A DNA stretch of 64,000 bases from Vampirovibrio sp. (GTDB taxonomy: Bacteria; Cyanobacteriota; Vampirovibrionia; Vampirovibrionales; Vampirovibrionaceae): assembly GCF_041737375.1 (NCBI RefSeq), contig NZ_JBGSRV010000008.1, positions 88,500 to 152,499 of the forward strand, read 5' to 3'. Position numbers and translations under genes: made by a program. The first letter of the stretch is position 1. Each line of letters begins with the position of its first letter. Below, in pieces: positions 21,868-26,788 of the stretch. The notes below the pieces were generated by a model. It searched no databases, had not been told where the DNA came from, and was given only the letters and a program-made list of their open reading frames with translations.

Positions 21868-22797
21868 ATGTCCCCGGTATTAAACGCTTTAACCATTGGT
21901 AGTTCCCAGTTTAGTGTGCTGCTGTTTTACACGCTACTGGTTTTTGCTTTATATGCCACGCTGGGTGCTTTTATCTGGTTGAAGCCATTGGAAGTGGCCA
22001 AAAAACCGTACCTGACCTGGGCCATTATGATTCCGTTGTTAATGCTACCGCTGTGGCTGGGCGCCTCGGTCTGGGTGTTTGCGGTCTTGCTCATTTCCGT
22101 GTATGGCTTCAAGGAATTCGCCAAGGGAACCGGCTTGTACGAGAAAAAAGCGTACTGTGTGGTGGTTTATATCGCCATGATTTTAATGGCCGCCACCAGT
22201 ATTTTGCGGGATTATGGCATGTTTATGGCGGTGCCTATTTGGGGAGTAGCGGCCTTAACCACCATTCCGGTTTTTACCAATCGTTTTGAAAACGCCATCC
22301 AGAATATCGCCCTGTCTGTGATTGGTCTGGTTTATTTTGGCTGGTTTCTGGGGCATTTGGGCATGCTGGCCCAGTCCACTTACGGTTTGGGCTATGTGCT
22401 GTATGTATTGATTTTTACCCAGTTTAATGACGCCATGTGTTTTTTATGGGGCAAACTATTCGGCAAAACCCCTTTCACCCATATTTCCCCCAAAAAAACA
22501 CTGGAGGGATCCATGCTGGCTTTGCTCAGCAGCATTTTAATCGCCTATTTAAACTGGCCCATCGCTTTTCCGCATTTTGAATGGTGGCTGGTGGCGCTGG
22601 CTGCTATTGTCATTAGTTTTGGGGGCCAAATGGGCGATTTGGTCATGAGTAGCTTTAAGCGGGACTTGGGCATTAAGGATTTTGGAACCCTGTTGCCCGG
22701 CCATGGCGGTATTCTGGATCGGGTGGATAGTTTGGTGTGGGTGGCTCCGCTATTTTTTCATATGGTGCGTTATTTCCATGCGGGGTTTGGGTCTTAA
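21868..22797 (+). CDS. Phosphatidate cytidylyltransferase, CdsA/YnbB-like
   Basis: [37 protein letters not shown]. Confidence 0.92.
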   Translation: [309 protein letters not shown]

Positions 22798-22798
22798 A

Positions 22799-22951
22799 AT
22801 GAACGATATTCTTCAAGCCAGCGTTAATCGGGATAGCGTGTGCCCGCCGCTCTATCAGTCTCAAAAACAGGATCAAAAAAATGAAGCGATCTCCAATGGG
22901 TTGCTGCTTGGGTTAGCGCCGTTGAACGCCTGTCTGGGAGCGCCGTTGTGA
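22799..22951 (+). CDS. Possible 50-aa coupled ORF
   Basis: ATG 1 nt after the upstream stop; its TGA overlaps the GTG start of the next gene. Confidence 0.35.
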   Translation: MNDILQASVNRDSVCPPLYQSQKQDQKNEAISNGLLLGLAPLNACLGAPL

Positions 22952-23616
22952 AGTTCCAGTACCAACACACCCCGGACTTTGGCCAGCCGCTTCACAAGCG
23001 TTTGGGCAACTATCCGCGCATTCCAGATTTCACCTGGGATTTTTGCCGCTGGGTGGGCAGTTGGCTCAGTGTGCTGTTTATTCGCAGTCAGTTTAAATTG
23101 GAGGTGCATGGCACTTTTCCGGCTGTGGATCGGTTGGCCATTGTGGCCAATCATCAGTCTCATCTGGATACCGCTACTTTGTTAGCGGCCTTGCCTTATG
23201 CCTGTCGTCAAAACACGGTGGTGCTGGCGGCAGAAGATTATTTTTTCAGAAGCGCGCCCAAGGCCTTGGCGGCATCGCTGCTGTGTCAGGGGGTGGCCTT
23301 TGATCGATTGCACTGGACAGCGGTTCGGGCCTGGTATCAACATCTCAAAAAACTGAAAAAAGGCTGGCTGCTTTTTTATCCCAGTGGCAGCAGGCACTCT
23401 TGCGAGATTCAGAGCGGCCTGCTCAAAATTCTGCTTCGGGAAGGCTGGACCATTCTGCCGGTGCGGCTGGATGGGGCCGATTTGGCATGGCCTTCTCACG
23501 CTTCCGTATGGCGTCCCTTCCGGCCCTTAAAAGTTACAGTTTATGACCCTTTTCAAGGGCATGACTTAGACGGTTTAATAGAAAAGTTAAAGCGAGAACT
23601 TTACCCTCATGCCTGA
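22948..23616 (+). CDS. PlsC-like lysophospholipid acyltransferase
   Basis: NHQSHLD (HxxxxD); variant block III YPSGSR. Confidence 0.85.
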   Translation: MKFQYQHTPDFGQPLHKRLGNYPRIPDFTWDFCRWVGSWLSVLFIRSQFKLEVHGTFPAVDRLAIVANHQSHLDTATLLAALPYACRQNTVVLAAEDYFFRSAPKALAASLLCQGVAFDRLHWTAVRAWYQHLKKLKKGWLLFYPSGSRHSCEIQSGLLKILLREGWTILPVRLDGADLAWPSHASVWRPFRPLKVTVYDPFQGHDLDGLIEKLKRELYPHA

Positions 23617-24250
23617 TAACCCGCCACCTCCCATAAAGCCTGATTTGGGCCTGTATCAAACCAAGTACCTGTTGCGGAATATTCTGCGAAACATTCCTGG
23701 CGTGGGGGCTTTGTCTCCCAATGCGCTTTCCCTGTTTGCGGTGGTGCCGGGTTTACTGGCCGCATGGTTTCTGATGCAGGGCCAGTGGTTGGCGGCTTTG
23801 CTCAGTATTATGGGCCGAATGATCGTGAATACCCTGGACGGTCTGGTGGCCGAGGAGTTTAATAAAAAATCCAATCTGGGCGCTTATTTAAACCGCTTGC
23901 CGGGTGAATTTACGGACATCCTGATTGTGCTTGCGCTGAGTTGGAAGGTTGCTCCGGTTTCGATTGGGTCTATGTTGCTGGTTCCTTTAACCGGTTGGGT
24001 GCAAATATTAGGCTTGCTGGGCCTGGCGGCAGGGGGAACCACGCAATCAGTAGGGCCCTGTGGGCAAACCGATCGGCTGGCGATTATCGCCATAGGTTGT
24101 CTGCTGGCTTTGCTGGGGTTGAATGGTTGGCCCATTTTAATTCCTATCCTGTGTATTGGGTGTGGGCTTACCATCGTCTTAAGAATTTTTCGTTCCATAC
24201 GGGACATTCGGAAACTGGATCAAACTCAGGAACATATGAACCGATGCTGA
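23609..24250 (+). CDS. CDP-alcohol phosphatidyltransferase, YnbA-like
   Basis: SPNALS; NTLDGLVA...LGAYLN......D; GP.G..DR. Confidence 0.85.
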   Translation: MPDNPPPPIKPDLGLYQTKYLLRNILRNIPGVGALSPNALSLFAVVPGLLAAWFLMQGQWLAALLSIMGRMIVNTLDGLVAEEFNKKSNLGAYLNRLPGEFTDILIVLALSWKVAPVSIGSMLLVPLTGWVQILGLLGLAAGGTTQSVGPCGQTDRLAIIAIGCLLALLGLNGWPILIPILCIGCGLTIVLRIFRSIRDIRKLDQTQEHMNRC

Positions 24251-25284: not shown

Positions 25285-25316
25285 CAATAAAAGGGTTCAC
25301 AGAAAAGGACACCAGC

Positions 25317-26072
25317 ATGAAATACGCTTTAATCCGATGGTTGTTACAAACGGTAGGCCGACTGAGTAAGGGCATTCAACTGGGCTGGCGAACCGGCTTT
25401 GATTCCGGGGTGATGCTGGAATACATTTACCAAAATAAACCTCAGGGAATCACCCCGCTGGGGGTATGGATTGATCGGCAATTTATCTCCCACCCGGTTT
25501 GGGATGGGGTGCGTTCTCGCCGGAATTTTTTAATCGGTCAGCTGAATGAGGCATTGAAGCATTATGATCACCCTGCTCTCTTTGATTTCGCTGCGGGCGT
25601 TGGTTCGTATCTGTTCGCGCTTCCGCAAGGCAAAGCCGTTATAACGGCGGGAGATTATGAGCCGGAAGCTGTTCAGCGGGGTCAGGAAAAGGCCAGCCGC
25701 TTGGGCCGAACGGATATTACCTTTCACAAAAACAACGCTTTTGATTTGAATGAATTTGCGGTGCGGCAGGCTGATATTCTGGTGTGTTCCGGCTTCTTTG
25801 ATATTTTGGTGAAAGAAGAGGAAATTTTAAAAGTGCTGCAAAATGGCTCGCATATTACCCAACCCGGCGCGCGATGGGTGTTTACCATTCAGGAGCATCA
25901 TCCTGATTTGCGCCTGTTGAAGGAAACCATGGTGGATTTGAATCACCAAAAATGGGAACTGGTTCCCCGTTCCGCTGAACAATTGGCGGAATGGGCCAAG
26001 CCGTTTGGCTGGGTGCTGGAAACCGTGGAGAGAAACGATTTTTTCGCCGTCGGTACGATGGTGCGTCAGTAG
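25317..26072 (+). CDS. Class I SAM-dependent methyltransferase resembling the YnbC C-terminal domain
   Basis: SKGIQLGWRTGFDSGVMLEYIY.N.PQG; DFAAGVG; AAGGA RBS. Confidence 0.85.
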   Translation: MKYALIRWLLQTVGRLSKGIQLGWRTGFDSGVMLEYIYQNKPQGITPLGVWIDRQFISHPVWDGVRSRRNFLIGQLNEALKHYDHPALFDFAAGVGSYLFALPQGKAVITAGDYEPEAVQRGQEKASRLGRTDITFHKNNAFDLNEFAVRQADILVCSGFFDILVKEEEILKVLQNGSHITQPGARWVFTIQEHHPDLRLLKETMVDLNHQKWELVPRSAEQLAEWAKPFGWVLETVERNDFFAVGTMVRQ

Positions 26073-26101
26073 CACAGGCAATTGAGAAAGCGAAACAAGG
26101 C

Positions 26102-26788
26102 ATGGTGAATATGGGTGACAATCCGGGCATCGCATGGGTCAGTGGCGCTAGCGGCTACTGGGGCCGAAAAACAGTGATGAGCCTGCTGCGTTTGAACTGG
26201 CAGGTCATTGCCCTCAGCCGTCAGGAACCTAAAGATTTGCCGGACTGGGCCATTGCCCAGCACAAAAGCCTGTTTTGGCAGCCGTTGGATCTGGAAGCAC
26301 CGGACTGGCCCAGTGCGTTGAGCGAGTTGCCCGGCCCTCAGGCGTTGTTTCATTGCGTGGGTTTGTTTGATGATGACTTTGAGCGCATGTTGCGGGTGAA
26401 CGTGGTGCAATCGGCCCAATTGATTGACTTGGCCGCAGAGCGGATGCAGGCCCAGCAATCGGGGCGAATCGGAATTTATCTGGGTCAGAACGGGCGACTG
26501 GGTATGCCGGGGCTGGGCGCCTTTAGCGCTACGCAGGGCGCCTTGTGGACCTGGACGGAGTCTCGGGCAAAAGCGTTGAAGCAGGAACGCACCGGGGTTA
26601 GCTTGAGTCTGGTTTTCCCGGAACGAGCCCCATCCCACTTGCAGGGACAACTGGCCGAGCGCCTGAACCGAAAAATCAAGTTAACTCCCCCTGAAACGGC
26701 GGATGATTTGGTGGCAGGTGTTTTAAAAGGTCAACCCAGGGTAGGCCGAAAGCCTTGGCTTGCTGGACTTTCTACGCTGCTGACCTGA
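26102..26788 (+). CDS. SDR-fold protein with degenerate active site
   Basis: SGASGYWG nucleotide-binding motif; FSATQ at the YxxxK position. Confidence 0.75.
   Translation: MVNMGDNPGIAWVSGASGYWGRKTVMSLLRLNWQVIALSRQEPKDLPDWAIAQHKSLFWQPLDLEAPDWPSALSELPGPQALFHCVGLFDDDFERMLRVNVVQSAQLIDLAAERMQAQQSGRIGIYLGQNGRLGMPGLGAFSATQGALWTWTESRAKALKQERTGVSLSLVFPERAPSHLQGQLAERLNRKIKLTPPETADDLVAGVLKGQPRVGRKPWLAGLSTLLT

Follow-up and report, generated by a model that had tools for sequence, protein, structure and literature searches.

Operons of the ynbABCD type are widespread 'y-genes' that resemble a spare phospholipid pathway; to our knowledge, no product of a ynb-type operon is known in any organism. In E. 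coli K-12 (b1408-b1411), YnbC carries a Hydrolase_4 and a Methyltransf_20 domain and YnbD a PAP2 and a DSPc domain, in agreement with a first-pass annotation that had described YnbC as a hydrolase-methyltransferase fusion and YnbD as a phosphatase. The window (the whole stretch of 64,000 nucleotides that was analysed, belonging to contig 1 of the 2.98-Mb, 99.6% complete genome of a Vampirovibrio sp.) includes a six-gene operon that is a variant of this known but unsolved kind and that probably makes a membrane lipid not yet identified. The closest named relatives are assemblies of Vampirovibrio chlorellavorus (protein identity, 78-80%). The passages on YnbB in one study report that its overproduction raises the glycolipid MPIase and describe YnbB as able to make cytidine diphosphate (CDP)-diacylglycerol (PMC6362211). 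The relevant passages of a paper on the ynbA promoter list YnbA merely as a predicted transferase (PMC3950696). The experimental work on ynb genes found by a text search of the literature was limited to YnbB (papers on MPIase) and to the ynbA promoter (supplements were outside the search); ynbC, ynbD and ynbABCD returned mostly acronyms of yeast media, the Pfam name Methyltransf_20 and the accession PF12147 returned nothing, and the combination of the gene families of this operon returned nothing relevant.

The operon (21868-26788, + strand) is read here, with a probability of about 0.5, as a co-transcribed accessory ynb-type operon, a self-contained side branch of glycerophospholipid metabolism with a recruited pyridoxal phosphate (PLP) enzyme and a catalytically dead short-chain dehydrogenase/reductase (SDR), which makes a methylated lipid with an amino-acid-derived head group. 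Its six genes, termed g1 to g6, are intact, overlapping or closely spaced, and belong to the six families that had been proposed at first reading (Pfam). g1 (21868-22797; 309 aa; CTP_transf_1, E 1.4e-56): YnbB-like second cytidylyltransferase of the CdsA family. g2 (22948-23616; 222 aa; GTG start; Acyltransferase, E 1.1e-7): acyltransferase of the PlsC/LPLAT type. g3 (23609-24250; CDP-OH_P_transf, E 2.6e-6): YnbA-type membrane protein. g4 (24244-25284; 346 aa; Aminotran_5, E 6.4e-29): class V PLP enzyme resembling SufS and C-DES and devoid of the desulfurase Cys. g5 (25317-26072; 251 aa; Methyltransf_20, PF12147, E 2.5e-38): stand-alone S-adenosylmethionine (SAM) methyltransferase corresponding to the C-terminal part of YnbC. 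g6 (26102-26788; 228 aa; adh_short, E 2e-8): atypical SDR. The interval of 150 nt between g1 and g2 holds a 50-codon open reading frame (ORF; 22799-22951, + strand) that begins 1 nt past the stop of g1 and overlaps the start of g2 by 4 nt. g2 and g3 overlap by 8 nt and g3 and g4 by 7 nt, whereas 32 nt separate g4 from g5 and 29 nt separate g5 from g6. The starts given by mechanical ORF calling for g4 (TTG at 23941), g5 (25254) and g6 (25991) were rejected; the orthologues align from the ATG codons at 24244, 25317 and 26102, respectively. The six genes look functional, since they are free of stops and their ratios of nonsynonymous to synonymous substitutions (dN/dS) against two congeners are low (0.065-0.167, in the same range as the 0.08 of the flanking FadE-FadD gene; synonymous changes are saturated and the ratios are rough).

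Direct comparison of the E. coli proteins with those of the window gave substance to the ynbAB(C) likeness noted at first reading. g1 is 44% identical to the C-terminal part of YnbB over 120 aa (E 2e-30) and g3 is 35% identical to YnbA over 95 aa (E 5e-12). g5 matches residues 320-583 (C-terminal half) of YnbC over the whole methyltransferase (27% identity, E 5e-29); with 251 aa and no hydrolase part, it is not a fusion of the YnbC type. YnbD has no tblastn match within the window and DSPc (PF00782) no match in the 99.6% complete genome; the phosphatase that had been reported as missing is thus indeed unmatched. Methyltransf_20 homologues (28-38% identity) were found in 9 of 400 sampled genomes of the phylum. 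The five loci that were fetched from these genomes (L049-L053) all encode a YnbA-like protein, a YnbB-like protein, a g2-like acyltransferase and the methyltransferase, and none of the five encodes a PLP enzyme, an SDR, a Rieske oxygenase or a hydrolase. Because g2-like acyltransferases sit in these simpler modules, the acyltransferase belongs with the ynb-type core of this phylum and is not an add-on. The modules devoid of PLP enzyme and SDR also indicate that the window operon is a four-gene ynb-type core that recruited g4 and g6 (plus a Rieske oxygenase and a hydrolase in fuller forms).

Some simpler modules have features of their own. Three encode a YnbA-like protein fused to a flavodoxin-like domain (L050, 8223-9311, - strand; L052, 6761-7849, + strand; L053, 6249-7397, + strand). 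This domain was found by Pfam in L050 (E 8e-9) and L053 (E 2e-5) and was deduced from length and layout in L052. These fusions hint at redox chemistry in ynb-type systems. A gene encoding an Aas-like protein (major facilitator superfamily transporter, acyltransferase and AMP-ligase) adjoins the module in L050 and L052. Two glycosyltransferase genes adjoin the module in L049.

The gene set is compact, rare and clearly delimited. The g4 orthologues form a sharply bounded family: 39 protein clusters match at E 2.5e-94 or better and the next match is at 7.6e-40. Loci around these orthologues were taken from species genomes (13), from metagenomes (11) and from relatives, i.e. 25 loci after removal of duplicates; only loci whose contig has room enter the counts that follow. 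All six genes follow one another as in the window in 13 of 19 loci. g4 is directly preceded by g3 in 21 of 22 and has g5 downstream in 19 of 22; the cluster includes g6 in 18 of 20 loci and g1 in 17 of 21. g2 was counted in 14 of 21, and one further copy is truncated at the end of its contig. Since many of the loci are closely related, the counts overstate independence; the distribution across two phyla is not subject to this reservation. The PLP, methyltransferase and SDR genes thus travel with the ynbAB-like genes in other genomes; separation from them had been set beforehand as the outcome that would tell against a common pathway. Carriers belong to the Vampirovibrionales, to photosynthetic cyanobacteria (Chroococcus, Chlorogloea and Aliterella) and to the Limnocylindria (Chloroflexota); Caenarcanales carry partial sets. 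A search of 400 other genomes, sampled evenly across the phylum, gave no g4 orthologue at E 1e-50 or better. Of the 40 nearest genomes, 7 are of the same genus, 17 of the same family and 16 of the same order; strong g4 matches were obtained in 4, 2 and 0 of them, respectively. Three of the seven other genomes of the genus (G002, G004 and G005; 94-97% complete) yielded neither g4 nor g5. The copy of V. chlorellavorus Vc_AZ_2 (L020, i.e. G001 contig 37, 7485-9811) is apparently decayed, or may be an assembly artefact: it lacks g1 and g5, retains only pieces of g2 and g3, and keeps g4 and g6 at full length and without stops. A locus of a Thermostichus metagenome-assembled genome (MAG; L031, 8001-8392), which includes only short fragments (20% of the length of g4 and 12% of that of g5), looks like a further decayed copy in a photosynthetic cyanobacterium.

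The putative active sites of the core proteins are unevenly conserved. In g1, the motif GDLVMSxFKRDLGxKDFGxLLPGHGGxLDRxDSL is kept in 10 orthologues and completes the C-terminal pattern that we take to be the CdsA signature (S-x-[LIVMF]-K-R-x4-K-D-x-[GSA]-x2-[LIF]-[PGS]-x-H-G-G-[LIVMF]-x-D-R-[LIVMFT]-D). g1 belongs to the CdsA family (PF01148; the match covers 4-264 of 264). In the tree, the g1 clade (98/98) is apart from the housekeeping CdsA proteins and adjoins the YnbB clade (96/99) without lying inside it. A second, very distant CdsA is encoded on contig 21 of the genome; very long branches separate it and the PgsA-like protein of the genome from g1 and g3, respectively. The g3 tree (3 of 16 inner branches supported) shows only the distance of g3 from the housekeeping enzyme. 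g1 and g3 thus appear to be paralogues of housekeeping lipid enzymes. In g2, H69 and D74 (HX4D motif) are invariant in 13 of 13 orthologues; block III (PEGTR-like) reads PSGSR, also invariant in 13. g2 belongs to the PlsC/LPLAT family (PF01553), and its sole solved relative is Thermotoga maritima PlsC (5kym), a weak match (E 2.5e-5). In g5, D90, G94, G96 and D113 (SAM-binding motifs) are invariant in 15 orthologues. g5 is the sole PF12147 gene of the genome; its matches to solved structures are three weak methyltransferases (E 2e-4 or worse).

The CDP-alcohol phosphotransferase signature (PF01066) is altered in g3, which was aligned to the solved enzymes and to the PgsA-like protein of the genome. 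In place of DxxDGxxAR..GxxxDxxxD, the family reads (N/S/T)xxDGxxAE..GxxxNxxx(G/A/S)E. Of the canonical signature, g3 keeps no more than the second Asp (D77), the Gly and the Ala. The first Asp is N, S or T; the Arg is E and the third Asp is N in 15 of 15 sequences; the place of the fourth Asp is taken by G, A or S, with an invariant E immediately after it. In YnbA and the core YnbA-like proteins, the first and third Asp are also Asn, but the Arg and the last Asp are kept. The PgsA-like protein, the only other CDP-alcohol transferase of the genome, has the full signature. The best NCBIfam matches of g3 are archaetidylinositol-phosphate and phosphatidylinositol phosphate (PIP) synthases, far below the cut-off (40.5 bits vs 180). 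As the altered residues are invariant in 15 sequences, the site is under selection.

By sequence and fold, g4 is an enzyme of the SufS/C-DES type. Its best sequence match in the PDB is C-DES (1elq; full length, E 3e-21, identity about 21%). The model of g4 (predicted local distance difference test, pLDDT, 91.4) matches SufS, a Thermococcus desulfurase and C-DES by Foldseek (TMq 0.80-0.85; C-DES, 0.85). K180, D156, Q159, R315 and R320 are invariant in 20 sequences. K180 aligns with K226 of SufS (the PLP Lys) and R320 with the Arg that presumably holds the alpha-carboxylate of the substrate in SufS. The SufS stretch 'GHHCA' is replaced by 'QDRRI' with adjoining deletions, the position of SufS C364 is an Arg, and the His-His pair of SufS is Phe-Pro. 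No conserved Cys was found in the C-terminal third of g4 in the 20 sequences, so that g4 lacks the hallmark of SufS/NifS desulfurases; the lack of a desulfurase Cys loop, noticed at first reading, is thereby borne out. All solved relatives are either desulfurases or C-S lyases: the best 60 of 68 PDB sequence matches and the top 50 fold matches include no decarboxylase. No DegT family scored in the Pfam search, and ESM Atlas gave generic 'class V PLP enzyme' clusters only. The second-tier homologues (about 30% identity; 7 of about 80 scanned) match no NCBIfam model at its cut-off; the sole fusion among them (P0120) carries a CoaD-like domain, which is not a lipid enzyme.

g6 retains the Gly-rich dinucleotide motif (G15, G18, G21, R40 and N100 are invariant, and D63 is also kept) and has lost the active site of classical SDRs. 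The YxxxK position reads F-S-A-T-Q; across orthologues, the catalytic Tyr is F in 10 of 15 and Y in 5 of 15, and the catalytic Lys is Q in 14 of 15 and I in 1 of 15. These replacements justify the term 'degenerate' given to this SDR at first reading. The model (pLDDT 86.8) has the classical SDR fold. The family includes 46 proteins, all at least 51% identical, with nothing weaker; it is small, closed and confined to these clusters. g4 and g6 are predicted to bind each other. Their complex model scores 0.70 (runs: 0.68, 0.70 and 0.71) and the best of three controls 0.00; the mark is reached by 116 of 157 solved complexes and by 2 of 215 mismatched pairs (own alignments were used and this calibration is rough). 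Contacts agree by at least 84% between runs and the pLDDT of the partners is at least 82. The predicted interface involves the C-terminal domain and last helix of g4 (268-285 and 336-344, including the invariant W338 and L339) and the first helices of g6 (19-30 and 44-53, including the invariant W20, G21, L28 and L46). Such a complex agrees with an SDR family that is closed in its distribution and with the decayed Vc_AZ_2 locus, in which only g4 and g6 survive intact. We know of no solved complex of this kind between a PLP enzyme and an SDR.

The window copy is a reduced form of a fuller cluster. In nine related loci, an intact gene (Rieske and VanA_C domains) lies between g1 and g2. In six, a separate Hydrolase_4 gene, of the Pfam family of the N-terminal half of YnbC, lies between g5 and g6. 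The absence of the hydrolase, part of the first-pass annotation, therefore holds for this lineage and not for these six loci. The ORF at 22799-22951 appears to be a relic of the Rieske gene, a call that rests mainly on position: only the first 10 or so and the last 4-10 residues still match the Rieske protein. The relic of the congener L014 is clearer (identity to the L019 gene: 76% for its first part and 73% for its last) and was made by a different deletion; L014 keeps the other six genes. The Rieske gene is intact in L019 (type strain of V. chlorellavorus). As the relics of the window and of L014 differ in their deletion while L019 is intact, the gene was lost at least twice in the genus, and the reading frame into g2 was kept. 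With the L019 protein as query, no Rieske homologue was found elsewhere in the genome. The best NCBIfam match of this protein (L019, 5641-6693, + strand) is SdmA, the sterol 4beta-methyl monooxygenase (E 2e-38, full length; 132 bits vs a cut-off of 600); its matches to solved structures are generic oxygenases only.

An unlinked Hydrolase_4 gene is found on contig 14 of the genome (G000, 385431-386204, - strand; L058, 6393-7208); its product and the hydrolase encoded within the L021 cluster share 55% identity. The unlinked gene adjoins a gene encoding a HAD hydrolase and, on the opposite strand, a gene encoding a 478-aa acyltransferase. This gene was rejected as a member of the system: its orthologue is found in G004 and G005, which are devoid of the cluster, and is absent from G010, which bears it. 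In a Vampirovibrionales MAG (G009 contig 6, 165220-165987; L017/L021), one TGA lies inside the match of the in-cluster hydrolase; the gene may be broken or the sequence erroneous.

Gene content, synteny, purifying selection, rarity and the state of each active site are observations; the chemical steps that follow, and the lipid itself, are proposals drawn from these gene families. g1 would supply a dedicated pool of CDP-diacylglycerol, as suggested by its intact CdsA signature and by the published data on YnbB. g3 would bind CDP-diacylglycerol, or a lipid derived from it, in the membrane and would pass it on or present it. g4, encoded directly after g3, would act as a lyase-type PLP enzyme on an alpha-amino acid or an amino-acid head group, in a complex with g6 that is so far a model; g6 would probably still bind NAD(P)(H) and be unable to carry out SDR redox chemistry. 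g5 would methylate the product and g2 would add or restore an acyl chain, giving a methylated phospholipid with an amino-acid-derived head group. Enzymes of fatty-acid metabolism recur beside these clusters (FadE-FadD in the genus, Aas-like proteins at simpler modules), which was counted in favour of a lipid product. A bolder version of this scheme, held with considerable doubt, is that g3, g4 and g6 together make up a membrane-bound machine for editing an amino-acid head group that is still joined to a phospholipid, and that this machine, with g5, yields a class of lipids so far undescribed in the cyanobacterial lineage, possibly sulfur-bearing or N-methylated.

Several observations weigh against the proposed lipid pathway. 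g3, with three of the four signature Asp lost and Glu in place of Arg, may be no transferase at all. The substrate of g4 could be soluble. The g4-g6 complex is only a model, and L025 and L029 carry g4 without any SDR nearby. The cluster is dispensable: it is missing from three congeners and decayed in a fourth. With the Rieske gene lost and the hydrolase unlinked, the product of the window operon may also differ from that of the full cluster.

The interpretation that came with the first-pass annotation is the closest competitor, and is judged unlikely. According to it, the PLP enzyme makes an amino-alcohol head group (e.g. by a decarboxylation of the serine type), g3 joins it to CDP-diacylglycerol and g5 N-methylates the product, giving an aminophospholipid similar to phosphatidylethanolamine or phosphatidylcholine. 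An amine lipid would need its own route in this bacterium, since no match to phosphatidylserine decarboxylase (PF02666) was found in the 99.6% complete genome and the sole other CDP-alcohol transferase is PgsA-like; the methyltransferase is a regular member of the cluster, and g4 retains the residues that bind PLP and the carboxylate of an amino acid. However, g4 has desulfurases and C-S lyases as its solved relatives, with no decarboxylase among the matches listed, and the joining step is not secure since g3 has lost three of four catalytic-site Asp. The conserved dead SDR is left without a role, and methylation appears independent of any PLP-made amine, as simpler ynb modules have the methyltransferase without a PLP enzyme. 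From that first interpretation, the ynb likeness, the co-travelling genes, the missing Cys loop and the degenerate SDR are retained; the absence of the hydrolase is limited to this lineage.

Sulfur chemistry is a less likely candidate still. g4 would be a C-DES-like C-S lyase that frees a thiol or a persulfide from a cysteine or cystine conjugate (possibly lipid-linked); S-methylation by g5 would then give a lipid or a small molecule bearing a thio or methylthio group. Pairs of a C-S lyase and an S-methyltransferase occur in natural-product pathways (LmbF/LmbG for lincomycin). The best full-length PDB match of g4 is a cystine C-S lyase, C-DES, which like g4 has no persulfide-carrying Cys, but their identity is merely about 21%. 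No gene of the cluster would make the thioether conjugate and no sulfur carrier gene lies nearby. Methyltransf_20, for which the text search returned nothing, has no known substrate.

A glycolipid anchor, as proposed for CdsA/YnbB of E. coli in MPIase synthesis, is very unlikely. g1 and g3 would build a sugar-pyrophosphate-diacylglycerol and the other proteins would tailor an amino sugar. A PLP enzyme, an SDR and N-acyl or N-methyl transferases are the usual tool set for amino-deoxy sugars, and the L049 module has glycosyltransferase genes beside it. However, sugar aminotransferases belong to the DegT family whereas g4 is SufS-like with no DegT score, the SDR is devoid of the catalytic residues for sugar oxidation, and no glycosyltransferase or nucleotide-sugar gene is found in or beside the cluster within the window. 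In E. coli, YnbB is linked to MPIase (PMC6362211), which counts in favour of this reading.

Least probable of all is a decaying operon that is on its way out in this genome and makes nothing, for although the Rieske gene is down to a relic and the cluster is missing from or decayed in four congeners, the six genes are full length and stop-free with dN/dS in the range of that of FadE-FadD, the overlapping start/stop junctions are kept (including the 4-nt overlap of the relic with the start of g2), and L014, which lost the Rieske gene by its own deletion, keeps the other six genes.

The flanking genes are in part conserved. A likely cell-wall hydrolase with CHAP and AMIN domains (20601-21725, + strand) is encoded directly upstream across the genus (62-68% identity). 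The gene at 28499-32611 (+ strand) encodes a 1370-aa protein in which a FadE-type acyl-CoA dehydrogenase is fused to a FadD-type long-chain fatty-acid-CoA ligase; in four congeners it is conserved immediately after the cluster (80-89% identity). Between g6 and this gene, a class I/II PLP enzyme is encoded on the - strand (26885-28006); it resembles the aminotransferase PRK07324, GntC of guanitoxin synthesis and the capreomycidine synthase VioD (E 2e-81 to 5e-67, all below the cut-offs). This gene looks like an insertion in this lineage, since nothing matches it in the congeners L014 and L019, where the spot is only about 430 nt. An Rfam scan of 20500-28600 (E up to 1) matched nothing and no riboswitch was found. 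The four sequencing runs listed are all of DNA and stem from a single hot-spring study. The scan for promoter-like (1 vs 6.5 expected) and terminator-like sites (15 vs 11.6 expected) was uninformative.

New features of this system are a natural drop-out series across genomes (with or without Rieske oxygenase, hydrolase, acyltransferase or SDR) and, as handles, a non-canonical YnbA-type site and a predicted pair of a PLP enzyme and a pseudo-SDR. The variant is found in culturable cyanobacteria (Aliterella and Chlorogloea), where it has eight genes. The lipid, if found, would provide new head-group chemistry for bacterial membranes and insight into the envelope of Vampirovibrio, a predator of Chlorella. 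A head-group-editing machine, if true, would be a PLP enzyme acting directly on a lipid with the help of a pseudo-enzyme partner, and would offer the first clue to the product of a ynb-type operon in any bacterium.

The operon can be compared with five known systems or sets of loci. E. coli ynbABCD: a YnbA-type protein, a YnbB-type CdsA paralogue and a Methyltransf_20 domain are likewise encoded in one tight operon, the YnbA-type signature shows the same changes of the first and third Asp to Asn, and the lipid product is not known for either operon. By contrast, the window operon is devoid of the YnbD phosphatase; its methyltransferase is stand-alone, the hydrolase being a separate gene in relatives and unlinked in this genome; it encodes three further proteins, namely an acyltransferase, a PLP enzyme without the Cys and a dead SDR, and its fuller relatives also encode a Rieske oxygenase; and g3 has further lost the signature Arg and last Asp, both kept by YnbA. 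Simpler cyanobacteriotal modules (L049-L053): the YnbA-like protein, the YnbB-like protein, the g2-like acyltransferase and Methyltransf_20 are also encoded in one operon. However, these proteins are merely 25-46% identical to those of the window, the tree places their YnbB-like members with E. coli YnbB (96/99) and outside the g1 clade, and the YnbA-like protein is fused to a C-terminal flavodoxin-like domain in three loci of the same class.

C-DES (Synechocystis, 1elq) and SufS/CsdA: g4 shares their fold (TMq 0.80-0.85), and the PLP Lys, the Asp, the Gln and the carboxylate-binding Arg align; the persulfide-forming Cys is absent from C-DES as from g4. g4 differs by its low identity (about 20%), by a length shorter by 40-60 residues, and by its location in a lipid operon with an SDR-like protein as predicted partner; unlike SufS/CsdA, it has no SufE- or CsdE-type sulfur acceptor gene nearby. 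Rieske oxygenase and SDR of sterol C-4 demethylation in Methylococcus (SdmA/SdmB): SdmB is the NAD(P)-dependent reductase partner of SdmA, and in both systems a Rieske oxygenase and an SDR-type protein would act on a lipid. However, the Rieske protein scores far under the cut-off of the SdmA family, the SDR of the window cluster is devoid of catalytic residues and the Rieske gene is lost in the window. Routes to phosphatidylglycerol and phosphatidylinositol (CdsA, then PgsA or PIP synthase, then a phosphatase): a cytidylyltransferase is likewise followed by a CDP-alcohol transferase, as in the Bacteroides inositol-lipid cluster (PMC9246714), whereas the window cluster includes neither a phosphatase nor a head-group synthase such as MIPS, and the g3 signature is non-canonical.

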